DNA of 28,023 nucleotides from Candidatus Nanopusillus sp. (GCA_028275775.1 JAPWTZ010000006.1:1-28023); one strand, 5' to 3'; shown: positions 5,887 through 27,776, counted from the first letter of the stretch. Notes: a model not told the origin generated them from the sequence alone. Program-made: numbers and translations.

Positions 5887-6575
5887 ACTTCTTTATATTC
5901 AATAATTCCATCATTTACTATTTTAAATTTTATAGATATTCCTTCTGGTAAATATCTATGCTTTCTTAATATTGCTTCTCTAATACCATTATCTAAAATT
6001 CTTAATTCAATCAAACATTTTGACCAATATTTTATTAAATCTCCTCCAACAATTCCAATTGTATCTTTGTTATCAAATAAAGAATATACTTGATTTATAA
6101 CTAGAACTGGTATATTATATTTTCTAGAAATTTCTGAAAATATTTGTAATTGTTTTGCAAGTTCTATATTTACTTCATTTACATTACTATCTCCTCTTTC
6201 TAATCTATATAACATTGATATTGAATCTACAACAATTAATCCTACATCATTAAAATTCTTTTTTACATAATCATATGTTAAATATATTGCCTTTTTTTGT
6301 TCAGAAAAATTTACAGGTTTATATAATAATATATTTTTCATTACATTCTCAAAATCTTCTTTTGCAATTTGTTTTAATCTTTCAAAAGAAAAACCACCTT
6401 CAGTATCGATATATATTACTTTTTTTCCTAATCTAGATATATTATAAGAACTTATTATTGCAATATTTGTTTTTCCAGATGCAGAAGGACCATAAAATGA
6501 TGTAATAATATCTGTTTCAATACCCCCATCTAATAATTTATCTATTGGATATATTCCAGTAGAAATTTTACTCAT
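5883..6575 (-). CDS. radB: RadB, a RecA/RadA-paralog recombination protein
   Basis: 230 aa. Contains LDGGIETDIITSFYGPSASGKTN (Walker A), VIYIDTEGGFSFERL, and Walker B LIVVDS. It lacks the N-terminal HhH domain of RadA. Confidence 0.8.
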   Translation of the reverse strand: MSKISTGIYPIDKLLDGGIETDIITSFYGPSASGKTNIAIISSYNISRLGKKVIYIDTEGGFSFERLKQIAKEDFENVMKNILLYKPVNFSEQKKAIYLTYDYVKKNFNDVGLIVVDSISMLYRLERGDSNVNEVNIELAKQLQIFSEISRKYNIPVLVINQVYSLFDNKDTIGIVGGDLIKYWSKCLIELRILDNGIREAILRKHRYLPEGISIKFKIVNDGIIEYKEV

Positions 6576-6609
6576 ATAAAATTTTTTCTATTATTTTTTA
6601 AAAGTATAA

Positions 6610-7890
6610 CTAATATTTAATTTCAATTTCCTTTTCCCCTATTTTAATATATAAATACTTTGCTTTCTTTCTAATACTATTTTTATAATTATTTATTATA
6701 AATTCTAATGCTTTATATATATCATTTATTTTTCTTTTTGTAACTGCATATATTTTTCCATTTCTAATTATTAATTCTTCATTCTTATGCTTCTCATAAA
6801 ATTTATTATAATTTTTTTCTTCCCATAACAATGGACCTTCTCTTATTTCATATTCTGGTAATTTATCTGGATAATATAATATATAACCATATAAATAATT
6901 TTCATCAAAAAAGTAATAATAATTGAAGATTTTGAATCCAATATTATTTATCCACTTTTTAATATTATTAAATAATGATAAAGCTTTACTATTTTTTATA
7001 TCTTTATTATTTGAATCTCCTTCAATTTTTAAATATATCATATTTACATTATATTTTTCAGCCAATTTTTTTATTTCATCATAATTCATATATATTTTAT
7101 TAAAAAAGAATTTTTCTTTATCTTCAGATAATAAAAATAATCTAGAATAATATATAAATTCTGAAAATTTTTGTAAAGAAACTGAAGCTGCAACATTTCT
7201 ATATTTATCAGTTGGATCAATTATTATTATTGGGGATTTTATTTTATCCTTTGATAGATTTTTCTTTATTTCATCATAATCTTTATAATATTTTTCCAAA
7301 TCTATTATTACTTTTGGTTTCCATTTTGATACATTTTTTATTGTATTTTCAAAAGATCCATAATTTATTAATATTAATTCTATTGCATATCCAGAAAATC
7401 CTCTAACATAAGATTCTGCCCCATAAACATTTATATTCTTTGTAAATAATTTTAGTAATCTAACTTCATCTTTCATCTTTTCATTTAATTTACTTATTAC
7501 ATATTTAACATGAAATGGAGAAAGATCTGTAGTATTTTTTGCTTCTTTTACATCATTTATTTTTAATATTGGAACTAATTCAAATATTAAACCTTTATAA
7601 CTTACTTTAAAATAATCTCTAGAACCTTTTATCCTTATATAATCTAAATTTTCTTTCTTTAATACATTTTCAACAATATTAGATATATTTTTATCATCTT
7701 TAAATAATAGAAAAGTATCTACATCAAAATCATTTTTTATCCATGTATCCTTTGCAAAAGATCCTCCTAAAAATGGTTCTAAATTATTTGATCTTAATAT
7801 ATCGAAAAATTCATTTATTATATTATATACTTTTCTTTTTTCTTCCTCAGATGGTTTTATTTTAGATAATATTTTATTATAATCTATCAT
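6610..7890 (-). CDS. cca: CCA-adding enzyme (archaeal class I tRNA nucleotidyltransferase)
   Basis: GGSFAKDTWIKNDFDVDTFLLF matches the class I nucleotidyltransferase G-S...D-x-D core. At 426 aa, length and layout are typical of archaeal Cca. Confidence 0.85.
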   Translation of the reverse strand: MIDYNKILSKIKPSEEEKRKVYNIINEFFDILRSNNLEPFLGGSFAKDTWIKNDFDVDTFLLFKDDKNISNIVENVLKKENLDYIRIKGSRDYFKVSYKGLIFELVPILKINDVKEAKNTTDLSPFHVKYVISKLNEKMKDEVRLLKLFTKNINVYGAESYVRGFSGYAIELILINYGSFENTIKNVSKWKPKVIIDLEKYYKDYDEIKKNLSKDKIKSPIIIIDPTDKYRNVAASVSLQKFSEFIYYSRLFLLSEDKEKFFFNKIYMNYDEIKKLAEKYNVNMIYLKIEGDSNNKDIKNSKALSLFNNIKKWINNIGFKIFNYYYFFDENYLYGYILYYPDKLPEYEIREGPLLWEEKNYNKFYEKHKNEELIIRNGKIYAVTKRKINDIYKALEFIINNYKNSIRKKAKYLYIKIGEKEIEIKY

Positions 7891-8969
7891 ATTTTAAATC
7901 TTAATATTGCACCTATTTTAAAGTTTGAAAATTGTTCCCCTTCAGGATGATTTTTTGATATTATTTCAACTTTCGCATTTGTTTGTTCAATTAATTCAAT
8001 TAATTCCTTAATCTTATCCTTATAATCTTCAGATATTAATATTGTATCTACTGCACCAATTTCTAATGCTTTTTTTACATCATCAAATCCATAAACTACT
8101 AAACCAGTTCCTTTTCCAAGATGCTCAAAAAATAATTTTGTTAATTCTATTTCTCTTACATATTCTGTTTTTTCTAATACATCCTTTGCCCTTTCTAATA
8201 ATTCTTTTAATCCATATTCATTTGAATATGCTGTATCATATACACCTAAAATCTTTTGTTTAATATGATATGGTAAATAATCTCCATTAACAAATTGCTC
8301 TTTAAGTAAACCAGGTCCTCCAACTAATATACCAACCAATTTATCCAAATCTTTTTCAAAATAATTTCTAACTTCATCTGCTAAATATTTTAACCATAAA
8401 TGAACATCCTGTTCTATTAATCTTTGAAATCTTACAGAAGATTGTCCTCCAGCCCTCATTTTACCGGGAACCCATGATTGTTTATTTTCTAATATTATTA
8501 GTTGATTACCCTTTAATACCCCTATAGAAGCTTCTCCCCTATCTAAAACAATTAATCCATATATTTGTTTTGGTGATATTAGTTCTTTTAAAGGATCTAA
8601 TACAAATCTTGAATCACATCTATATAATCTAATATTTAATTTATCTGGAGGCTCTATTGCCCATAACCTTATATCAACATCCCCAGGTCTATTTGAAATA
8701 TTTCCACAAAATACTACTAAACCATTATCAGGAAGTTTTTTCAATCCTTTTAAATAATTTATAATTTTTGCCAATGCATCCATTACATGTTGTCTAGTAT
8801 TTTTATCCTTAATATTTTGTGCAGTTGAATATTCATAACTTAGATGATCTAAAACTTTTGTTAAATCATATCCTGATGGTATATAATATGAAATTAGTTC
8901 TGTAGCTCTACCATTATACTTACTTAATTCTTCTATTAACATTTGTAATTCAAGTTCTTTAACATCCAT
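7887..8969 (-). CDS. prf1: Peptide chain release factor aRF1
   Basis: GGQ motif (KMRAGGQSSVRFQRL), a NIKS-type motif present as NIKD (TAQNIKDKNTR), YxCxxxF (YRCDSRF), and a C-terminus of GAILRFKI. Confidence 0.9.
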   Translation of the reverse strand: MDVKELELQMLIEELSKYNGRATELISYYIPSGYDLTKVLDHLSYEYSTAQNIKDKNTRQHVMDALAKIINYLKGLKKLPDNGLVVFCGNISNRPGDVDIRLWAIEPPDKLNIRLYRCDSRFVLDPLKELISPKQIYGLIVLDRGEASIGVLKGNQLIILENKQSWVPGKMRAGGQSSVRFQRLIEQDVHLWLKYLADEVRNYFEKDLDKLVGILVGGPGLLKEQFVNGDYLPYHIKQKILGVYDTAYSNEYGLKELLERAKDVLEKTEYVREIELTKLFFEHLGKGTGLVVYGFDDVKKALEIGAVDTILISEDYKDKIKELIELIEQTNAKVEIISKNHPEGEQFSNFKIGAILRFKI

Positions 8970-13378: not shown

Positions 13379-15028
13379 ATGTATGAATTTATTAGTGATA
13401 TTATAAAAAAAAGCCTTAGAAAGATTACTATAATATTTAGCACAATAATTTTATTAATAATTATAATAGGAAAATATTTACCAGTATTAAAAATATATTA
13501 TCCTGTTTTATATTTATCTGCTGTTGTTTTTTCATTAGAAGTTATATTTCTAGAATATTATAAAACAAAAAAATCATTAGATAAATCTTTATTATATTAT
13601 ATAGCATATTTATATTCTCTTTCATTTTCTACAAGTAATATTAAAAGATTATTAGAAATTGCAATTGAAGAAAAAGCAGAATTTAAGGATATAAATTATT
13701 ATATGTCAAAGATTCTTTTTTTAACAAATAAATATAATTATACAATCCCAGAGGCTATAAGATATGTTTTACCATATATTCCAAATAGTAATTTTAAAAG
13801 TTTTCTAGAAAGATTTGCAACATCAATTGATATTGGAGAAGAAGTTCCAGAATTTTTATATAAGGAATATGAAACACAATTGGCAATATATGAAGCAAAT
13901 TATGAAAAGGGTTTAGAAAATATAAGATTATTGGATGAATTTGTAATATCATTATTATCTTCTTTAGGATTTGCATTTTCTTTAATATTATTTATACCTT
14001 TCTTAGTAAGTACAAATATTGTATTTTTGTTAGCAGATTTCTTTATAATATTTATTGTAGTTAATTTACTTATATATTATGTATCAAAATATTACATTCC
14101 AGATGATGGATTATGGTCAAATTCAAAAGAAAAGCCAAAAGAATATGTAACAATAAGATATTTATTTTATCTTTTATCATTTTTATCTTATATATTATTT
14201 TTAGCACTATTTTTAGTATTAAAGTTACAATTATTGGAAGCATTTGCAATAGCAGCAACACCTTTGGCATATGTAAGTTATAGGATGATATTATTAGAAA
14301 GAGCATTAAAAATAAAAGAAAATCATTTTCCAGCATTTTTTAGTAGTATAATAGAATATTCAGAAATATTTGGAAGTAATCAAACAAAAATATTGGATAA
14401 TGTTGTTATACATGATTTTGGTTTATTAAATGAAGATATTAATAGATTGAGAAAAAGAGCAAATATAACAAAAAATTATTCAGAATCTTGGAGATATTTT
14501 ATAGTTGAACTAGGTAGTTCAATTGCAGAAAAAATAATAAAAGTATTTGAAAAAGTTTTATCATATAATGGAGATACAAAGAAAGCAGGAGATATGTTAT
14601 ATAATATATTAATAAAGATAATTGAACTTAGATCTAGGAAATCTCAATTTATATCTAATTTAAGAGGTATTATATATGGAACATATATAGCATTTATAGC
14701 AATTTTATTTATAGTTGCTCAAATATTATATTTGTTAAATCAAATGTTTCAAGGTGTATCTACAGCACTTGGTACTGCAGTAGCTCAAGTAGGTATAAAT
14801 ATATATACACTTTCAATTCCTCTATATATATTGCAAGATTATATATTTGTAATATCTATTATTGAAGCTTTTATATTAGCTGGAGCATTAAAAAATATAG
14901 ATGGAGGATCTAAACTTGGAATGTTTTTAGATGCAACAGTTATGATATGGTTAAGTGCATTATTAAATATTGGAGTATATTATTTATTTACTCATGTATT
15001 TTCTGGTCTATCTTTAGTAAAAATATAA
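13379..15028 (+). CDS. FlaJ/ArlJ/TadC-like polytopic platform protein of a type IV pilus/archaellum assembly system
   Basis: 549 aa. Two soluble T2SS-F-like modules, each followed by TM helices. Module 1 is ~65-185, with IPEAIRYVLPYIPNSNFKSFLERFATSIDIGEEVPEFL. Module 2 is ~300-440, with FPAFFSSIIEYSEIFGSNQTKIL...SESWRYFIVELGSSIAEKIIKVFEKVLSYNGDTKKAGDML. Confidence 0.6.
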   Translation: MYEFISDIIKKSLRKITIIFSTIILLIIIIGKYLPVLKIYYPVLYLSAVVFSLEVIFLEYYKTKKSLDKSLLYYIAYLYSLSFSTSNIKRLLEIAIEEKAEFKDINYYMSKILFLTNKYNYTIPEAIRYVLPYIPNSNFKSFLERFATSIDIGEEVPEFLYKEYETQLAIYEANYEKGLENIRLLDEFVISLLSSLGFAFSLILFIPFLVSTNIVFLLADFFIIFIVVNLLIYYVSKYYIPDDGLWSNSKEKPKEYVTIRYLFYLLSFLSYILFLALFLVLKLQLLEAFAIAATPLAYVSYRMILLERALKIKENHFPAFFSSIIEYSEIFGSNQTKILDNVVIHDFGLLNEDINRLRKRANITKNYSESWRYFIVELGSSIAEKIIKVFEKVLSYNGDTKKAGDMLYNILIKIIELRSRKSQFISNLRGIIYGTYIAFIAILFIVAQILYLLNQMFQGVSTALGTAVAQVGINIYTLSIPLYILQDYIFVISIIEAFILAGALKNIDGGSKLGMFLDATVMIWLSALLNIGVYYLFTHVFSGLSLVKI

Positions 15029-15468
15029 CTTATTTTTCTTTCTTTTGGTATAAAATCTTTTAATATATTATTTTTAATATAAACACTACATAAAATATCA
15101 TTATTATCTTTTGCGATATAAAAACCATTTTCATAATTTTTATCTAACTTTATATTTTCATTATATTTATAAAAAAGACTTTCCTTTTTTATTTCAATAA
15201 TTTTATTAGAATTTATCCCAAAGATCTGCGCACCTTCTATACTAAATCTATATCTATTATTTTTTTCTATTTTAATTACATATAGACCATATTTCTTTAT
15301 ATATTTTTCATCTAAAAAATCTGGAAAATTTTTATTAAACATATATATTTTATCTTTATTAATGAAAAATCTGTATTTTTTTATTATTGACCTATCTATA
15401 TTTATATTATAGTATTCTTCTATTTTCTTAAATATTTCTTCTATATTCTTTTTATTTAATTCTTTCAT
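14992..15468 (-). CDS. Hypothetical protein, possibly a PUA/Nip7-like RNA-binding protein
   Basis: 158-aa ATG ORF whose start overlaps the rfcL stop by 4 nt. The tail ...ILCSVYIKNNILKDFIPKERK resembles the C-terminal ends of PUA/Nip7-type domains. The functional call is weak. Confidence 0.45.
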   Translation of the reverse strand: MKELNKKNIEEIFKKIEEYYNINIDRSIIKKYRFFINKDKIYMFNKNFPDFLDEKYIKKYGLYVIKIEKNNRYRFSIEGAQIFGINSNKIIEIKKESLFYKYNENIKLDKNYENGFYIAKDNNDILCSVYIKNNILKDFIPKERKISYIFTKDRPENT

Positions 15469-16691
15469 AATTTTTCTACAGCCTCTTTTATATATGATAT
15501 TTCATTTTCATCAAATCCCAATATTTTTGCATATTCTTTTCCTATTTTTTCATTTTCTTTCATTAAAACAATCAATGTATTTATATATACTTCCCTAACT
15601 CTATGTTTTGATGTATGAACCTTCTTTTGTAAATTTTTTGATAATTCTTCAATTTTTTCTCTTATCTCTTTATTTTGCGATAATCTTCTTACATATTGTG
15701 GCATCCTATATTTTGTAAATTTATTATATCTTTTTTCTTTTGCTAATGCAACACCAGCATACATTAATGTTGTAAAATATTTTAATAGATCCCAATATTG
15801 TCTTCTATAAATTCTTCCATAAAATACAATTGCCAATGATAACCAATTATAAGCTTCATATATTTCTTTTATATCTTCATATTCATTTGATATATTTTCT
15901 TCAACCCATGCTTTAATTTCCTCAGGATCCATATCTACATCTGCAAAAGGTAATGTAGCACCAGCTATTGTATTTGCTTTAAACATTTGACCTAGTGCTT
16001 TAAATATTGTAATTTCTCTTTCTCTATAACCTAAGACTTCCAAATCTTTTAATGTAATATGATTACTCATCATTGCTAATGCTTGTAAATCATTTATTGC
16101 ACTTCTTAAATCACCAGAAGATCTTTCTGCAAGTGCAGATAATGCATTTTCATCAATTGTTATTTTTTCATTTGTACAAATTCTCTTTAATTGTCTTATT
16201 ATATCATAATTTGATAATTTTTTGAATTCAACCATATCACATAAATCTCTTAATTTCTTAAATTTTGGATCCCATGGATCATTTGCAGTTAATATTATTG
16301 GCCACTTCGATTCTTCTATTATTTTTGCTAATGCTCCAACTCCACCTCTATCTTGAAATCCAGCTAATCCATCGACTTCATCAACTAAAATTATCCTTCC
16401 TTTTTTAAAAAATGGTTTTCCCTTTATTGCTTCTCCCAATTTTTCATGTATAACTCTTGCATTTCTATTATCTGAAGCATTTAATTCTACAACTTCATAA
16501 TTTAAATCATTTGCAATTGCATATATTGATGACGTTTTTCCAACACCTGGAGGACCATATATTAATAATGCTTTTTTATCTACATTTGGATATTTTTCAA
16601 TAAAGGATTTTATTTTCCCAATAGCTTCTGACTGATTAATTATTTCATTAATATGTTTAGGTGCATATTTTTTTATCCATGGCTCAACCAT
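15465..16691 (-). CDS. rfcL: Replication factor C large subunit
   Basis: Contains WIKKYAPKHINEI, Walker A GPPGVGKTS, LNASDNR, DEVDG, and the SGDLRSAINDLQ sensor region. Confidence 0.85.
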   Translation of the reverse strand: MVEPWIKKYAPKHINEIINQSEAIGKIKSFIEKYPNVDKKALLIYGPPGVGKTSSIYAIANDLNYEVVELNASDNRNARVIHEKLGEAIKGKPFFKKGRIILVDEVDGLAGFQDRGGVGALAKIIEESKWPIILTANDPWDPKFKKLRDLCDMVEFKKLSNYDIIRQLKRICTNEKITIDENALSALAERSSGDLRSAINDLQALAMMSNHITLKDLEVLGYREREITIFKALGQMFKANTIAGATLPFADVDMDPEEIKAWVEENISNEYEDIKEIYEAYNWLSLAIVFYGRIYRRQYWDLLKYFTTLMYAGVALAKEKRYNKFTKYRMPQYVRRLSQNKEIREKIEELSKNLQKKVHTSKHRVREVYINTLIVLMKENEKIGKEYAKILGFDENEISYIKEAVEKL

Positions 16692-16740
16692 TATAATATA
16701 TTTTAAATGCTAGATATTAAAATATGCGAAGTGTATTTAC

Positions 16741-16810
16741 TATAGTTACTATTTGATTATAGATAACAACGATAGATTTAAAAACTTTTTTATTAGTAAT
16801 TTTAGTTATG
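16741..16810 (+). promoter_or_regulatory. Conserved promoter-to-ATG element, copy A, with the TATA-like tttaaaaa at 16777-16784
   Basis: 54/70 ungapped identity with 17642-17711, with the ATG in register. The TATA centre lies ~27 nt upstream of ATG 16808, which implies a leaderless mRNA. Confidence 0.55.
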
Positions 16811-17562
16811 GAAGAGCCTATGTCTGATGATTTAAAGACAGAATTTTTTTCTTGATATTAAAATTAGGGAATGCATTGAGGAATAAGGCATATGAAGAAG
16901 AGTTAGGAAGAGAGTTTGTAAAAGAATTTGGAGAAAAATTAGTAGAATATGGAAAAAAATCATATAAAGATTATCAAAAAGAATTACAAAAGATACACAA
17001 AAAACTGCCCAAAGCACATAGAGTGGCACTAGATGTATTACTAGAAAAGATAGATATTTATAATCCATGTAAAAGAGAACCAACATGTTTAGATCCATAT
17101 GAATGGCTACTTATTTCTCACTATATATCTATAAATAACTTAAAAACCACTATAATAAGAAGTATTAACAAGCATCTTGAAAGATTAGATCCTACACAAC
17201 CAAATTATGATAAAGAAATTAAAAATATACGAGATGTTTTAATATATCTATCAGGGGTATATAAAACATTATTATTAGCTTATACGTTAGTGGTAGACAA
17301 CGCATTAAGCACCCATAAAAACCCATTGCATGATAAAATGGTTGAGCAGATAGAACGTTTAAAAGCATCTGATGACATTCAGAATTATATTCATGCAATT
17401 CAGGACTATATTCAGAAAGAGATGGAAAGGATCGACTTAGCATATCAAACGGCATCTAGCTATATTGAAGATACTATAGAAGAACTTTTCTATAAGAATG
17501 AAGAGGGATTTATTGAAAAGCTAACAAATGCATTACTTAAATATAGTAGGAATAGTTCATAA
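16808..17562 (+). CDS. Orphan alpha-helical protein, cassette A, interrupted by a frameshift at a T7 run
   Basis: ATG 16808 sits in the conserved promoter register and opens a 15-codon frame that stops at 16853-16855. The long ORF (track 16852..17562, TTG start) is in the -1 frame and has no in-frame ATG for ~160 codons. The two frames overlap only across 16831-16852, which contains the T7 run at 16844-16850. Confidence 0.55.
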
Positions 17563-17579
17563 GATAAATTAATATAATT

Positions 17580-17610
17580 CTTTTTTATTTATTTTTTATT
17601 TAATAACTAA
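17580..17610 (+). terminator. Conserved oligo-T 3' flank of cassette A (cttttttatttattttttatttaataactaa)
   Basis: T6 and T6 runs typical of archaeal termination. 29/31 identical to 18986-19016. Confidence 0.4.
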
Positions 17611-17641
17611 TTTACAACTATATTTTTATATAAGATATTGA

Positions 17642-17711
17642 TATAACTACTATCTGATCATAGATAGTAACAATAGATTTAAAAATCTTTTCAATAATAT
17701 ACTTACTTATG
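17642..17711 (+). promoter_or_regulatory. Conserved promoter-to-ATG element, copy B, with TATA-like tttaaaaa at 17678-17685 and an 8-6-8 inverted repeat at 17648-17669
   Basis: See copy A. The repeat tactatct-gatcat-agatagta has perfect 8-bp arms immediately upstream of the TATA box. Confidence 0.55.
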
Positions 17712-18905
17712 AAAAAGATATATCCATCTCCAAATCAAAACCAATCTAAAACATTAGATGAATTAGTAGGAAGAAAAGAATTAGAGGAAGCCATAGCAGC
17801 ATATACATATTATCTATCTACAAAGGGTCATGTGCTCAAAGCAGTATCAGAAGATATACCACAAGCGTTACCACCATTAAAAGAAATAATAAAAAACCTG
17901 GATGAATTTGGCGAATGTAAAAGTTTTTTAACTAATGATCAAGAAGCTCTCCAAAAGTGTACAGATGAATATAACTTTAAGGATGGCTTACTTGGAGGTA
18001 TTTGGGAATATACTATATGGAAGCATACACCAGAACAAATTAAAGAATTTACAAAAGGTTTAGAAACTCTAGCAAAAGGAGGCAAACAAGTAATAAAGGA
18101 TTTATATAAGCGATACCAGCAATATAAAACTACTCCAATACCTGAAGAAGATATAGATCCTAGGGTACTTGAAATAATACCTGAGGTTAGGGCTATTGAA
18201 TCTCTTGTACTTCGATATTTAGAGAATCCCGAAGATTATAAAAAACGAGTTAGTAAATATTTGGGAAAAAGACAATATCTATCTATAATAAAACAAGCAT
18301 TCTCAACGTTACCAAAATTTATCAAATATTTAGGAAAAAAATCGGAAGTGGAGGCAAAAGAAGAAGTAAAAGCATATGAAGAATTAAAAGAAGCAGCAGA
18401 AAACTATACTCTTTACGCAGATTATATGAGAGATGCACTCGATATAGTATCAGAACATATACCAAAAGCTTTACCATCATTAGTAACATTAATAGAAAAC
18501 TTAAGAGAATGGGACAAAAGTAATCTTTTAACTAATGATCAAGAAGCTCTCAAAGAATATGCAGATAAATATTACTTTATGGCTTACTTCATGGGAAGTA
18601 TTCTAGAATGGTGGGTATCAAAATGGAATATTCCACCAGAAGAAATTGAGGGATTCACAAAAGGTTTAGAAACTCTAGCAAAAGGAGGCAAAGAAATAAT
18701 AGATGACCTATATAGACATTATAAAGAAGTAAATAAATTGGCATTAGAAGAGATATCAAAAATTTATCAAACTATAAATATATATAGACTAAGAGAAGCA
18801 CGTGCAAGTGCGGCTGGAACTATTGAATATCTTCTAGTAAATTATTTTAGGAATCCTAAAGAGCATGAAGATCAACTTATGAAATACGCGGGAATGAAGC
18901 ATTAA
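17709..18905 (+). CDS. Orphan alpha-helical protein, cassette B, built from two tandem ~175-aa repeats
   Basis: 398-aa ATG ORF. Residues ~23-189 align with ~224-398. Shared blocks include IPQALPPL/IPKALPSL, LTNDQEAL in both, FTKGLETLAKGGK in both, and NPEDYKKRVSKYLGKR/NPKEHEDQLMKYAGMK. No family recognised. Confidence 0.75.
   Translation: MKKIYPSPNQNQSKTLDELVGRKELEEAIAAYTYYLSTKGHVLKAVSEDIPQALPPLKEIIKNLDEFGECKSFLTNDQEALQKCTDEYNFKDGLLGGIWEYTIWKHTPEQIKEFTKGLETLAKGGKQVIKDLYKRYQQYKTTPIPEEDIDPRVLEIIPEVRAIESLVLRYLENPEDYKKRVSKYLGKRQYLSIIKQAFSTLPKFIKYLGKKSEVEAKEEVKAYEELKEAAENYTLYADYMRDALDIVSEHIPKALPSLVTLIENLREWDKSNLLTNDQEALKEYADKYYFMAYFMGSILEWWVSKWNIPPEEIEGFTKGLETLAKGGKEIIDDLYRHYKEVNKLALEEISKIYQTINIYRLREARASAAGTIEYLLVNYFRNPKEHEDQLMKYAGMKH
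17775..18902 (+). repeat. Intragenic tandem duplication, with units at ~17775-18275 and ~18378-18902 and a period of 600-606 nt
   Basis: The units are generally diverged at the DNA level. Two patches are perfectly identical: 17926-17951 = 18526-18551 (26 nt) and 18051-18086 = 18657-18692 (36 nt). Confidence 0.85.
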
Positions 18906-18985
18906 GATAGACTGACATAGCAGCATGTAGATTATATTGTGACTGTAAAACAGAAAAGCAAAGTACATAAGACTTCTTGTAAAAT

Positions 18986-19016
18986 CTTTTTTATTTAATT
19001 TTTATTTAATGACTAA
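18986..19016 (+). terminator. Conserved oligo-T 3' flank of cassette B (cttttttatttaatttttatttaatgactaa)
   Basis: 29/31 identical to 17580-17610. It overlaps the 3' end of the convergent gene 19006..19422. Confidence 0.4.
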
Positions 19017-19422
19017 ATAAAGAGAAAAGTCCACTTAATATACCACCACTTTCAACTATTTTGCATGGTAAAACTGCTTCATATTGATTACCATTTACAA
19101 TATAATATACCCTTACATATGCATTTCCTATAATAATATTGTTATTTATATTACATGCATTCATAGATCCATAATTTATATTTCCTAAATTACATGATGA
19201 ATTTTCATAGAAATTATATACCGTTACATTTTCCAGATTTTGTTTTGCAGTAATTATAATAAGAGATGTTCCATTTGCATATTGACAACTATATGTAAAA
19301 TATTCTAAATATGGAGGTAAATATGATGTTACATAATATGTATATATTGCATATAGTACAACCAATATAAAAGCTGCGATACCAACCCAGATTACAAATT
19401 TTGGTATCTTTGATATATCCAT
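19006..19422 (-). CDS. Small N-terminally membrane-anchored, Cys/Asn-rich, probably extracellular protein
   Basis: MDISKIPKF followed by one TM helix (VIWVGIAAFILVVLYAIYTYYV), 4 Cys, and sequons NGT, NVT and NSS. No family recognised. Confidence 0.6.
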   Translation of the reverse strand: MDISKIPKFVIWVGIAAFILVVLYAIYTYYVTSYLPPYLEYFTYSCQYANGTSLIIITAKQNLENVTVYNFYENSSCNLGNINYGSMNACNINNNIIIGNAYVRVYYIVNGNQYEAVLPCKIVESGGILSGLFSLFSH

Positions 19423-19432
19423 AAAATTATTT

Positions 19433-19684
19433 TTAATCTACATATATATAAACATAGATATATTTATTCCCTCTATCCTCAATCTTCATATTTTTTATAA
19501 TCTCTTCATATTTTTTATCATCTACATCAAATAGATCTGGATATTTATTCAATATATAATCCAACAATAATCTTTTTATCATAATATCACCATTCTTATT
19601 CAAATTTTCAGAATTATATTCATCTAAAATACCTTCTATTATATATTTTGGAATCTTAAATTCATACTCAATATTATATGGCAT
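19433..19684 (-). CDS. Hypothetical small protein (83 aa from the ATG)
   Basis: The track ORF runs to 19741 but begins at TTG. The first ATG is at 19684 (MPYNIEYEF...). No family recognised. Confidence 0.5.
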   Translation of the reverse strand: MPYNIEYEFKIPKYIIEGILDEYNSENLNKNGDIMIKRLLLDYILNKYPDLFDVDDKKYEEIIKNMKIEDRGNKYIYVYIYVD

Positions 19685-19757
19685 GTAAAATCTTACTATT
19701 TTCCAAAATATAAATGATTGCTTTATATTTTTGAATTTCAAAAATGATTATCGAAAA

Positions 19758-22230: not shown

Positions 22231-22980
22231 ATGAAAATAATATCATGGAATGTTAATGGATTAAAATCTATAATTCAAAAAGGTTTGATTGATTTTATTA
22301 AAAAATATAATGCAGATTTTTATCTATTTCAAGAAATAAAAACAAAAGAAATACCATTAACTTTCCAATTTCTTGGATATAATGTATATTCATTCCCTGC
22401 AGAGAGAAAAGGATATAGTGGAGTACTAACATTAGCAAAAATAAAACCAAATAATGCAAAATATGGAATTGGAATTGAGAAATTTGATATTGAAGGAAGG
22501 GTTATAACAATGGAATATGATAAATTTTATTTGATAAATGTATATTTTCCAAATGCTGGAGTTGGAACATTAAAAAGATTGGATTTTAAATTAGAATTTG
22601 ATAAAGAATTTGAAAAATATGTACTTTCTTTAAATAAACCATGTATAATTTGTGGAGATTTTAATGTAGCACATAAAGATATTGATATATATGATCCAAT
22701 AAATTTGAGAGGCTATGCAGGATTTACGGATGAGGAAAGACAATGGTTTGATCATTTTTTATCTTTAGGATTTATTGATACATTTAGATATATAAAAGGA
22801 AATATAAGAAAATATAGCTGGTTTTCATATTCAATTATTGCAAGAAAGAAAAATGAAGGATGGAGACTTGACTATTGTGTAGTAAGTAAAGAATTAAAAG
22901 ATAAAATAGTTAATGCAGATATATTAGATAATATATATGGATCTGATCATGTTCCAATATTATTAGAAATAAATATATAA
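22231..22980 (+). CDS. xth: Exodeoxyribonuclease III / AP endonuclease
   Basis: Contains ISWNVNGL, LFQEIK, the GYSGV block, CGDFNVAH, WRLDY, and GSDHVP. Confidence 0.9.
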   Translation: MKIISWNVNGLKSIIQKGLIDFIKKYNADFYLFQEIKTKEIPLTFQFLGYNVYSFPAERKGYSGVLTLAKIKPNNAKYGIGIEKFDIEGRVITMEYDKFYLINVYFPNAGVGTLKRLDFKLEFDKEFEKYVLSLNKPCIICGDFNVAHKDIDIYDPINLRGYAGFTDEERQWFDHFLSLGFIDTFRYIKGNIRKYSWFSYSIIARKKNEGWRLDYCVVSKELKDKIVNADILDNIYGSDHVPILLEINI

Positions 22981-23052: not shown

Positions 23053-23586
23053 ATGCCAGGTTTTCGTCACCATCGCTTTGGTCCAAGCTACGTACGTAGT
23101 GATATAGACGAACTAATATTAAGTTACCTACCACAAGGTGGAGTAGCTGCTGATCTTGGATGTGGATCAGGTAGGTTTTGCCAGGTGCTATTAAATAAAG
23201 CTAGCAAGGTTTACTGCGTAGATATAGACGAATATGCCATCAATATGGCAAAAGAAAATACTAAGGATAATAGAGCAGTATTTCTCAATGAAGATGCGTC
23301 ATCAACATCAATACCTGCTAGCTCTGTAGATTTAGTAATAATGGTTAACGCATTCCATGATATGGAAAATAAGGATAAAGTAGTTCTAGAGGTGGGTAGG
23401 ATCCTTAAGCAAGGTGGTCTGGCTTTAATTATAGAGTCTAAACCGGGTTTAGCATCATATGGGCCACCACCATGGTTAAGAATGAGCCCCAATGATATAA
23501 TTAAGTACTTCAATAATCCTCAATTTAAAGTAGAAGGTATAAAGGATTTAGGAGATTTTAACGCTATAGTAATTAAAAAGCTTTGA
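23053..23586 (+). CDS. Class I SAM-dependent methyltransferase (Methyltransf_11/25-like), compositionally foreign
   Basis: Motif I is VAADLGCGSGRF, with an acidic residue at the end of beta-2 (VYCVDID) and a post-I/II pattern (DLVIMVNAFHDM, LKQGGLALI). Hand counts give ~38-45% GC, against ~20% in the flanking genes. It uses TAC, AAG and CGT/CGC codons that are rare elsewhere in the window. Confidence 0.8.
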   Translation: MPGFRHHRFGPSYVRSDIDELILSYLPQGGVAADLGCGSGRFCQVLLNKASKVYCVDIDEYAINMAKENTKDNRAVFLNEDASSTSIPASSVDLVIMVNAFHDMENKDKVVLEVGRILKQGGLALIIESKPGLASYGPPPWLRMSPNDIIKYFNNPQFKVEGIKDLGDFNAIVIKKL

Positions 23587-23712: not shown

Positions 23713-24804
23713 ATGAAAAAAGTAGGTGATGTAGAATTAAGATTAGCAAAAGGACCTGTTCCACATTATAGAGAATTAAAAGAATTAGAAAGAAGTATAG
23801 TAAAAGTAATTATTGAAGAATTTGGAACAGAAGAATTAATAAAAAGATATTCAAATCCATTATGGTTTAATTCTTTAGCATGTTTACTTGGATTTGAATG
23901 GAATTATTCTGGAATGACTACTGTAACACTAAAAGCATTAAAGGAAATATCTATAGAAGATAATTTACCAATAATTGTTTTGGGAGGAAAAGGAAAAAAT
24001 TCAAAAATAACTGAAGAAGTAGAAAATAGAGATATAAAGGATAAATTAAAAGACAAGATAAAGGATATATCAATAACTTCTGCAAAAGTTGATAATTATT
24101 TAATTCAAGATGGATATAATTTATATTTTCATTTTTTAATTTCTGATGAAAAAGGCAATATGACAATTATAAATCAAAAAATGTCAATAAAAGAACAAAA
24201 AGTTAGAAGATTTCATTGGATAAATATAAATTATTTTGATGATTCCCAAATTGGTTTTGGATCAAATACAAAAACATTAAATTTGGCATCAAAAGAATCT
24301 GAAGAATTAAGAAAAAATATTTTAGAAATAATTAATAATGAAAGAATAGAAAAAATAAAAGAATATATAATAAGATTAAAATCGTATCAAAATAAAAATA
24401 ATACTATATTAAAGTATATTAATAAAGAAAACAATGATTATATATTCTATCAAGAATTACCTTACTATTTAAGGATACCTAATAAAATATATTGGAAAGC
24501 ATTGGAAATTAATAGAACTATAGAAAATTTCAAGGATTTATTATTTATAAAAGGTCTTGGACCTGGATTGTTAAGAGCGCTAGCATATACTGCAAAAATA
24601 ATATACGGAAGTGAATTATCATGGAAAGATCCAATAATATATACATTTGCACATGGAACAAAAGCTGGAAAGCCATATTATGTTAAAAGAGCATTAATGT
24701 TAGAAGAAGCAGAATTATTAAAAAATGCAATTGAAGAAGCAAAAGTCAATAATAATTTTAAGTTAAGATCTTTAAGAAAATTAAATGAATTAATAAATAT
24801 ATGA
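23713..24804 (+). CDS. Conserved archaeal protein of unknown function, DUF763-like
   Basis: The N-terminal block (LAKGPVPHYRELKELERSIVKVIIEEFGTEELIKRYSNPLWFNSLACLLGFEWNYSGMTTVTLKALKE) and the C-terminal block (GLGPGLLRALAYTAKIIYGSELSWKDPIIYTFAHGTKAGKPYYV) match my recollection of DUF763/COG1415. The middle is a K/N-rich insert. Confidence 0.65.
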   Translation: MKKVGDVELRLAKGPVPHYRELKELERSIVKVIIEEFGTEELIKRYSNPLWFNSLACLLGFEWNYSGMTTVTLKALKEISIEDNLPIIVLGGKGKNSKITEEVENRDIKDKLKDKIKDISITSAKVDNYLIQDGYNLYFHFLISDEKGNMTIINQKMSIKEQKVRRFHWININYFDDSQIGFGSNTKTLNLASKESEELRKNILEIINNERIEKIKEYIIRLKSYQNKNNTILKYINKENNDYIFYQELPYYLRIPNKIYWKALEINRTIENFKDLLFIKGLGPGLLRALAYTAKIIYGSELSWKDPIIYTFAHGTKAGKPYYVKRALMLEEAELLKNAIEEAKVNNNFKLRSLRKLNELINI

Positions 24805-25544: not shown

Positions 25545-25584
25545 GTATATTTTTTATAAATTTTAACATATATATTGGATTTTT

Positions 25585-25800
25585 ATGTATAGATTATTTG
25601 ATACAAAAGATGAGCTAATAACAACAATAAGTACTGGAATATATATTTTCCATATATCCGAAGCTTCATATTTTAATATTAAAAACCCAGAAAACTCGAT
25701 TAAAGTAATTGCAAGTATATATGTACCACAAAATCACTATGAAAAAATTATTGAAGATTTAGCAAAATATAACAAAAAATATCAGATTCATATAAATTAG
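25585..25800 (+). CDS. Hypothetical small protein, probably the 5' part of a gene broken at an A6 run
   Basis: 71-aa ATG ORF ending at TAG. The -1 frame is open from 25773 to a TAA at 26022-26024 and has no start codon of its own. Confidence 0.45.
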   Translation: MYRLFDTKDELITTISTGIYIFHISEASYFNIKNPENSIKVIASIYVPQNHYEKIIEDLAKYNKKYQIHIN

Positions 25801-26047
25801 ATGGAATTATTATTGGCATTTCTAATAGAGGATCCCAATACAATCAACTAGAAAGGAAAATAAATAGAAAACCAGTAGAAATTTTATCAGATGACAGTTT
25901 AATAAGTAAAGTAGAAATGATAACAAATAATAAGGCTTTATATCAATTAATAAATAATAAAGGAGACATTGAAATAGCCGTTAAAATAAATATTTTCCAA
26001 AACTATCAAAGCTTTGGTTTATAAAATTTTTTGAATATCTTTTTTCT

Positions 26048-27703: not shown

Positions 27704-27776
27704 GGGACCGTGGTCTAGTGGCTATGACGCCACCCTTACAAGGTGGAGGTCCGGGGTTCGAATCCCCGCGGTCCCA
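27704..27776 (+). tRNA. tRNA-Val (anticodon UAC), no intron, CCA not encoded
   Basis: Acceptor stem gggaccg/cggtccc. Anticodon arm ccacc-cuUACaa-ggugg. T arm cgggg-uucgaau-ccccg. Discriminator A, followed by tca rather than cca. The 73-nt gene is highly GC-rich in a ~25% GC context. Confidence 0.9.

Follow-up and report, generated by a model that had tools for sequence, protein, structure and literature searches.

The 28,023-nucleotide (nt) stretch of Candidatus Nanopusillus sp. DNA analysed here (GCA_028275775.1, JAPWTZ010000006.1:1-28023; hereafter the window) carries four open reading frames (ORFs), designated A, B, C and D, between the genes for the small (rfcS) and large (rfcL) subunits of replication factor C (RFC). 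This interval is probably composed of two core genes, D and C, together with a tandem array of cassettes, A and B in the window, which is lineage-specific, evolves by birth and death and is not a recognisable mobile element. The anatomy of the cassettes, their paralogy, their variation in copy number, the junctions between them, a raised ratio of nonsynonymous to synonymous substitution rates (dN/dS), the expression of one member and the restriction of the family to a single lineage were all observed directly. Nanopusillus and Nanobsidianus are obligate ectosymbionts of Sulfolobales or Acidilobus hosts and have genomes of approximately 0.6 Mb. The G+C content is approximately 23% across the window, the proteins of which share 90-96% identity with their counterparts in hot-spring genomes of Candidatus Nanopusillus and Nanobsidianus.

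A preliminary description of the window had proposed that all four ORFs represent an accessory insertion into a housekeeping gene string, and had suggested a comparison of synteny. Fifty-one related loci were compared, among which 26 complete, non-redundant rfcL-C intervals were counted. The order of the flanking genes was common to all loci, running FlaJ/T2SSF-like, NIP7-like, rfcL, array, C, D, rfcS, methyltransferase and TatD; the shortest rfcL-C interval measured 40 nt and the longest 4925 nt. Three of the 26 intervals lacked cassette-strand ORFs of at least 100 amino acids (aa); three possessed one, 11 possessed two, four possessed three, four possessed four and a single interval possessed five. 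The cassette-free loci were those of YN1, a complete genome, and Nanopusillaceae KM4331-08, in which C and rfcL are separated by 40-42 nt, and that of Nanopusillus RSNS12 (locus L007), in which the gap is about 220 nt (7776-7997; 219 or 222 nt depending on the count). The RSNS12 gap retains a degenerate operator-like piece (AGTATTTGATAATATTAGA) and a terminator, so that it looks as though an array once present had been deleted, and not as though the site had always been empty. The order of cassettes also differed between strains: A is followed by B in the window, B by a 227-aa type in locus L002, and a 225-aa by a 198-aa cassette in N. acidilobi, and the array of locus L010 encodes proteins of 176, 398, 212, 246 and 253 aa. 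The notion of an accessory insertion therefore holds for the plus-strand A/B block, which is variable between strains and atypical in its codon usage, and fails for C and D on the minus strand.

Gene C was retained as the neighbour of rfcL in 26 of 26 complete intervals, and D was located beyond it wherever the contig extended, including in the three cassette-free genomes. The product of C has an N-terminal transmembrane helix, four invariant Cys residues and N-X-S/T sequons, and is 80-92% identical to its counterparts in Nanopusillus and Nanobsidianus and 57-60% identical to those in YN1 (60%) and KM4331-08, with a dN/dS (computed throughout against three relatives) of 0.18-0.27. Its orthologue in N. 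acidilobi, Nps_02365, is recorded with one transmembrane domain under arCOG05419 (PMC4935971 Supplementary Data 1). Gene D exhibited 87-93% identity within Nanopusillus and Nanobsidianus, 50-51% to YN1 (51%) and KM4331-08, and a dN/dS of 0.10-0.18; it has 112 homologues, of which all those named by organism are Nanopusillaceae, except one labelled only 'Nanoarchaeota archaeon'. C and D are conserved core genes under purifying selection, family-wide in Nanopusillaceae, and since they are in place in all relatives they are not part of the insertion. It also follows that rfcS and rfcL are never directly adjacent in Nanopusillaceae, and the co-oriented string rfcS-D-C-rfcL is probably the ancestral, minimal state. 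Two observations that the preliminary description had named as speaking against an insertion were accordingly made in part: genes conserved in place among relatives, which applies to C and D and not to A and B, and the lack of rfcS-rfcL adjacency in the family. A different small insertion is present in the same gene string in YN1 (L015, AP031373.1), where a 70-aa ORF with a pilin-like N-terminus (MKSISPIIATILLIVIVVALAG) lies on the opposite strand between rfcS and D (6805-7017, minus strand). In a distant DPANN genome (L017), the rfcL of which is 43% identical, three unrelated same-strand genes of 242, 235 and 215 aa occupy positions 5917-8005 between rfcS and rfcL; insertion between RFC genes is thus not unique to Nanopusillaceae.

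The suggestion that A and B each carry their own promoter and terminator was borne out, as such flanks are present and are homologous to one another. The 5' flanks align over 76 nt (16741-16816 and 17642-17717) with 76% identity and the 3' flanks over 35 nt (17576-17610 and 18982-19016) with 91% identity, and the 5' and 3' flank motifs each occur twice in the window, compared with 0.00 and 0.01 occurrences expected from shuffled sequences. Within the 5' flank, a 7+7-nt palindrome is followed directly by TAAC(G/A)ATAGATTTAAAAA, comprising the transcription factor B recognition element (BRE) and TATA box, and then by the ATG, approximately 32 nt after the start of the TATA box. The palindrome is imperfect in A (ACTATTT-N6-AGATAAC) and perfect in B (ACTATCT-N6-AGATAGT), and ATAGATTTAAAAA is present in both. 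The distance between TATA box and ATG implies a leaderless mRNA, and the palindrome may represent an operator abutting the BRE/TATA of such an archaeal transcript. A single control-region consensus described 22 cassettes from 11 loci, the coding parts of which are less than 25% identical, and the palindrome was confined to cassette promoters across all 52 sequences examined. A single dimeric regulator might bind this shared palindrome, in which case all cassettes would be co-regulated. A scan of the window for sigma-70 promoters and hairpin terminators, using a model that is uninformative for an archaeon, returned 22 sites against 27.9 expected and no terminators.

The location of A was upheld, although the ORF is not intact. 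As called, it extends from a TTG start at 16852 to 17562 (236 aa). Its true start is the ATG at 16808, from which the frame runs for 15 codons before reaching a TGA at 16853-16855, owing to the loss of one nucleotide at a T-run (16844-16850). Restoration of one base yields a protein of 251 aa, the N-terminus of which aligns from residue 1 with the intact homologues P0058, P0059 and P0060 (85-90% identical, 251-252 aa, N-terminus covered), and the frameshift was also checked by nucleotide comparison with loci L027 and L025. In the TTGA at 16852-16855, this TTG overlaps the TGA that closes the 15-codon leader; termination-reinitiation is therefore conceivable, and the frameshifted A might still yield a product of 236 aa.

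Cassette B consists of a single domain that has been duplicated internally in tandem, the copies occupying residues ~16-184 and ~219-394 with a disordered linker between them; the halves are 40% identical (E = 7e-38), and half-size homologues of 219-281 aa match either one. Its AlphaFold2 model is all-alpha (predicted local distance difference test score, pLDDT, 80.6; predicted template modelling score, pTM, 0.80), and that of a single-domain member is an all-alpha bundle (pLDDT 83.5; pTM 0.79). Single-domain members start with a conserved disordered peptide, M..TSSNQNQSKTLEE, and end in a strongly conserved tail, PLDW[LF]DRAICNLYGGCKTEKQNT. A decayed remnant of this tail follows the stop codon of B, as judged against the intact tails of cassettes from loci L010, L001 and L006 and the family alignment. 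No signal peptide or transmembrane segment was visible in the cassette proteins by sequence inspection. Foldseek searches of the PDB with the two-domain and single-domain models yielded nothing at E <= 0.001, the best matches being to designed helical repeats and transporters with template modelling (TM) scores of 0.39 or less, and sequence profiles of D, C and the cassette domain matched PDB entries only among designed proteins of biased composition. A zinc site formed by a C-x13-C pair and a CxLYGGC tail was considered and set aside, as many members lack the Cys residues and confidence in the modelled tail is low.

Direct comparison of A with B by BLASTP gave no match. The two families were matched by hhalign at E = 1.6e-4, and A and B are linked by BLAST chains through other cassette types; a further bridge is protein P0100, which scores 6.4e-11 against the B-type profile and aligns over 201 residues with the A-type P0058 at 1e-16. 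These profiles and intermediates identify A and B as distant paralogues, and not as the unrelated orphans for which they had been taken. Both exhibit the features by which the cassette family is defined, namely CTATCT-N6-AGATAG and ATAGATTTAAAAA approximately 32 nt before the ATG, an all-alpha domain of approximately 200 aa, and a location between rfcL and C. Fifty-six homologues were found for B, all of the organism-named ones being from Nanopusillus or Nanobsidianus, and 33 for A from the same sources. A profile search of 1.84 billion representative proteins returned only 20 hits at E <= 1e-3, which indicates an extremely narrow family. The cassette family is restricted to Nanopusillus and Nanobsidianus.

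The junctions between cassettes are informative as to how the array was formed. In other strains they consist of approximately 65 nt of the antisense 3' end of C, then ~20-25 nt from the start of rfcL together with the sequence upstream of the gene, and finally the operator and promoter. Copies of the divergent region adjoining rfcL (16692-16747) plus the first ~20-25 nt of the gene recur within the arrays of other strains, and positions 16666-16815 of the window have array-internal copies in loci L026, L027, L033, L049 and L006. In the window itself, degraded remains of the antisense 3' end of C can be recognised in the T-rich terminator of A (TTAATAACTAA compared with TTAATGACTAA). The presence of rfcL and C fragments at junctions indicates that the array expanded through tandem duplications encompassing the entire interval, and unequal recombination between junctions explains the gain, loss and reordering of cassettes. 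Inactivation was frequent: several cassette promoters lead into ORFs of only 7-47 aa, an identical A-run frameshift was observed in loci L040 and L045 from two metagenomes, and the cassette of locus L012 has a nonsense codon at position 10. The array is seated in a divergent region, prone to recombination, between C and the promoter of rfcL, and its unit is an autonomous transcription unit comprising operator, BRE/TATA, leaderless ATG, one or two soluble all-alpha domains of ~200 aa and an oligo-T terminator. In the mechanism proposed, tandem duplication of the interval would have given rise to the array and would go on changing it, and unequal recombination at the conserved junctions, domain fusion, fast amino-acid divergence and frequent early inactivation would have shaped it later; on one occasion a segment would have been copied to a second site ~6 kb away.

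This second site was recognised in loci L036, L038 and L042, from three metagenomes, in which an array is inserted between a thioredoxin-side ORF and trxR at a position that is empty in the window (Table 1). The left breakpoint is the same in all three loci and is followed in L036 and L038 by a 19-nt fragment of the 5' end of rfcL. A second rfcL fragment forms the right end, with the same breakpoint in L036 and L038; the L042 contig stops short of it. The ends exhibit the short homology TCCAT and rfcL fragments, and not inverted repeats. The second-site arrays look like descendants of a single ancestral event in which an array segment was copied or moved, probably by a short-homology route. 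An ORF in the intergenic stretch 25545-26047 of the window seems to stop at ~25797-25799, at the breakpoint, and in locus L002 a gene of 134 aa is called at the matching position.

The preliminary description had noted that A and B are richer than the other orphan ORFs in G/C-ending and CGN codons, and counts agreed. In A and B the G+C content at third codon positions (GC3) reached 0.203 and 0.168, respectively, compared with a mean of 0.114 (standard deviation 0.045) for the window, and CGN triplets account for 2/10 Arg codons in A and 4/14 in B, with none in all but two of the other genes of the window. A foreign source for the founding cassette is possible, given this atypical usage. The most atypical gene in the window is a methyltransferase ORF of 177 aa (23053-23586, plus strand; G+C content 0.375, GC3 0.266, CGN in 3/7 Arg codons). 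The gap in which it lies, between Exo_endo_phos (22231-22980) and DUF763 (23713-24804), is another variable spot, at which the N. acidilobi-type loci L004 and L006 add a 516-aa aldehyde dehydrogenase and L002 is without both genes.

The cassettes exhibited faster protein change than their surroundings: dN/dS was 0.37, 0.64 and 0.76 in B and reached 0.51 in A, compared with 0.07-0.15 in flanking genes. The synonymous rate (dS) of B, 0.24, was similar to the 0.21-0.27 of flanking genes, a pattern that favours vertical inheritance of B along with its neighbours while its protein changed at an accelerated pace. At least one cassette is expressed. Nps_02355 (AMD29895.1), the 225-aa cassette adjoining rfcL in N. 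acidilobi, was detected in the proteome of that organism at spectral rank 55 and MIT rank 56, the ranks of rfcL and rfcS being 75 and 17, respectively (PMC4935971 Supplementary Data 1). None of the papers searched names Nps_02355, Nps_02360, Nst1_464-466 or arCOG05419, and the locus is not mentioned in the full text of the single-cell paper of Jarett et al. 2018 or in one supplement to the YN1 paper.

The preliminary description had expected functions of mobile-element, defence or viral derivation at this position. Among the genes called in the neighbourhood of the window and in the related loci, none encodes an integrase, transposase or recombinase, either in or beside any array. PADLOC produced only sub-threshold chance matches (E of at least 0.0029), the best PHROGs match had E = 0.0026, 37 stretches in IMG/VR fitted the search pattern without any of them encoding a relative, INPHARED gave no match by tblastn, and the best Foldseek match of the single-domain model in BFVD had E = 0.15. 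A viral or phage origin was rejected on the IMG/VR and INPHARED results, and a transposon or integrative element on the missing transposase and integrase and on second-site junctions without terminal inverted repeats or a clear target-site duplication. That the A/B block is a horizontally acquired island inserted into the RFC string is thus distinctly unlikely, although such an island would account for the presence/absence polymorphism among relatives, the opposite strand, the raised GC3 and CGN usage, and the second-site copy in three loci. Such an island also sits poorly with a family limited to Nanopusillus and Nanobsidianus, a dS for B equal to that of its flanks, rfcL and C fragments of the kind left by local duplication, and second-site ends made of rfcL fragments and TCCAT. 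A different reading is that the array is a phase-variable contingency locus, in which slippage at A/T homopolymers near the 5' end toggles cassettes and recombination reshuffles them, generating variation in interaction factors within the population. Independent early homopolymer disruptions (the T-run of A in the window and the A-run of L040 and L045), promoters leading into very short ORFs, the start/stop overlap of A and wide variation in cassette number and order are consistent with this. The tracts are, however, only ~7 nt in length and such runs are common by chance at ~23% G+C, whereas the remaining disruptions, the L012 nonsense codon and decayed tails, fit plain decay under relaxed constraint; the contingency reading is unlikely. 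A bolder form of it, that the array is an archaeal counterpart of contingency or antigenic-variation loci, providing a co-regulated bank of abundant soluble proteins for an arms race with host or virus by 5' homopolymer switching and by recombinational reshuffling and relocation, is speculative and on balance rather improbable.

It is very improbable that the cassettes are non-functional decaying remnants, whether spurious ORFs or pseudogenes, in an intergenic region prone to recombination. The high dN/dS, the frequency of frameshifted, nonsense and truncated alleles and the complete absence of the array from some genomes would all be expected of such remnants. The place of Nps_02355 within the top ~55 proteins by abundance of those detected in N. 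acidilobi largely refutes this explanation, and long ORFs kept intact across strains with dN/dS below 1, confident structure models and a strongly conserved promoter and operator likewise argue against it. The interpretation as core genes plus a birth-and-death cassette array faces difficulties of its own. The frameshift in A could be a homopolymer assembly error, and the unusual GC3 and CGN values are left unexplained by tandem duplication and could mark a foreign founding cassette. A gene-wide dN/dS below 1 cannot distinguish relaxed constraint from diversifying selection, and the single regulator is read from the shared palindrome. In addition, the second N. acidilobi cassette (Nps_02360), C (Nps_02365) and D (Nps_02370) were undetected in the N. 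acidilobi proteome (PMC4935971 Supplementary Data 1).

The arrangement bears comparison with several known systems. The rfcS and rfcL genes are adjacent in many archaea, including Pyrococcus and Sulfolobus, and the present locus resembles such pairs in that both genes lie on the same strand, small then large, within a few kb; it differs in that D and C always intervene in Nanopusillaceae, to which most Nanopusillus and Nanobsidianus add the opposite-strand array. The PFam54 proteins of Borrelia (the BBA64 family) are likewise tandem paralogues with helical bundles of ~200 aa, rapid divergence and variable copy number, but are secreted lipoproteins, whereas the cassette proteins have no signal peptide. 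Weak Foldseek matches to Borrelia BBA64 and to IncA were treated as non-significant; the PFam54 match (E = 0.13-0.66, TM ~0.19) leaves an analogy of organisation, not membership. In the recombinase-associated acquired interbacterial defence clusters of Bacteroidales, orphan immunity genes are arrayed with intergenic sequences that recur and bear promoters. These clusters share with the cassettes a conserved promoter-bearing sequence before each unit and a content that varies by strain; in contrast, they contain unrelated immunity families and a recombinase on a mobile element, whereas here all units are paralogues, there is no recombinase and no homology to toxin or immunity proteins was found. 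Integron arrays also consist of cassette-like units at a fixed chromosomal site with conserved boundaries and variable number and order. An integron was nevertheless rejected: there is no IntI, attC or adjacent recombinase, the boundaries are promoter and terminator sequences with fragments of flanking genes, all cassettes are mutually homologous, and each has its own TATA/BRE and operator, unlike promoterless integron cassettes. Bacterial contingency loci resemble the array in the homopolymer-linked 5' frameshifts of fast-evolving genes in a host-dependent organism, but the tracts here are of 7 nt, many alleles are inactivated by other kinds of mutation, and switching is conjecture. Tandem arrays of fast-evolving paralogues are already known. 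What is new here, in a nanoarchaeal symbiont, is a cassette architecture specific to one family and equipped with a conserved operator, together with the relocation of a block of it and the abundance of one member.

The identities and positions of both RFC genes were confirmed using Pfam. The product of rfcL possesses the AAA+ module (PF00004, 3.9e-15), RFC-type lid (RCF1-5-like, PF21960, 7.8e-10) and longer C-terminal region of an RFC large subunit, with a weak match to the RFC1 C-terminal domain (1.1e-3); it is 90-95% identical across the Nanopusillus and Nanobsidianus loci and 79% identical in YN1. In N. acidilobi, its orthologue bears a large-subunit annotation (PMC4935971). The product of rfcS matches Rep_fac_C (PF08542, 9.8e-21) and AAA (PF00004, 4.8e-16), as expected of a small subunit. 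The four ORFs between these genes were found where the preliminary description had placed them, and none scored above curated cut-offs in Pfam, PHROGs, NCBIfam or PADLOC. Rfam and tRNA scans identified no RNA gene within the interval, the sole match in the window being tRNA-Val at 27704-27776. Beyond rfcL, the gene for the FlaJ/T2SSF-like membrane protein (549 aa, 13379-15028, plus strand) converges with the NIP7-like gene (14992-15468, minus strand) with an overlap of 37 nt, and the latter overlaps rfcL by 4 nt (15465-15468); both overlaps of the NIP7-like gene are conserved in relatives.

Table 1. Features of the rfcL-rfcS interval and of the second array site, in window coordinates.
Feature	Position	Strand	Remarks
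rfcL, RFC large subunit, 408 aa	15465-16691	-	left edge of variable interval
Divergent region with the A/T-rich promoter-like sequence of rfcL	16692-16747	.	from sequence reading
Cassette A control region	16748-16807	+	imperfect palindrome 16748-16767; BRE/TATA 16772-16784
Cassette A (A-type family)	16808-17562	+	conserved ATG 16808
A-B junction	17563-17648	+	T-rich terminator 17576-17610
Cassette B control region	17649-17708	+	perfect palindrome 17649-17668; TATA 17673-17685
Cassette B, 398 aa	17709-18905	+	two copies of the family all-alpha domain
Decayed remnant of family C-terminal tail	18906-18981	+	cut off by B stop codon 18903-18905
B terminator, T-rich	18982-19005	+	adjoins C stop codon
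Gene C, 138 aa	19006-19422	-	conserved core gene, outside insertion
Gene D, 83 aa, small, acidic	19433-19684 (ATG 19684)	-	conserved core gene, 10 nt upstream of C
rfcS, RFC small subunit, 322 aa	19758-20726	-	right edge of interval
Second array site, empty form	25792-25803	.	from blastn breakpoints and junction sequences

For annotation, these results separate C and D, which are core to Nanopusillaceae, from the accessory cassettes, and correct the gene model of A. The conserved palindromic operator provides a starting point for identifying a regulator in a lineage whose transcriptional control is essentially unstudied. Genomes of ~0.6 Mb have almost no spare DNA, yet this locus ranges from 40 nt to 4.9 kb between neighbourhoods that are otherwise ~95% identical, and the protein at rank ~55 in abundance, Nps_02355, belongs to the only cultured species. 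As the cassette proteins are abundant, soluble, dispensable and fast-evolving in an obligate ectosymbiont, it may tentatively be suggested, as a possibility more doubtful than probable, that they are dispensable, strain-specific factors that interact with the host or with viruses. Few features of Nanopusillus-type symbionts are clearly variable between strains, expressed and rapidly evolving; the array is one of them, which makes it a concrete candidate for determinants of host range or of interaction with viruses.

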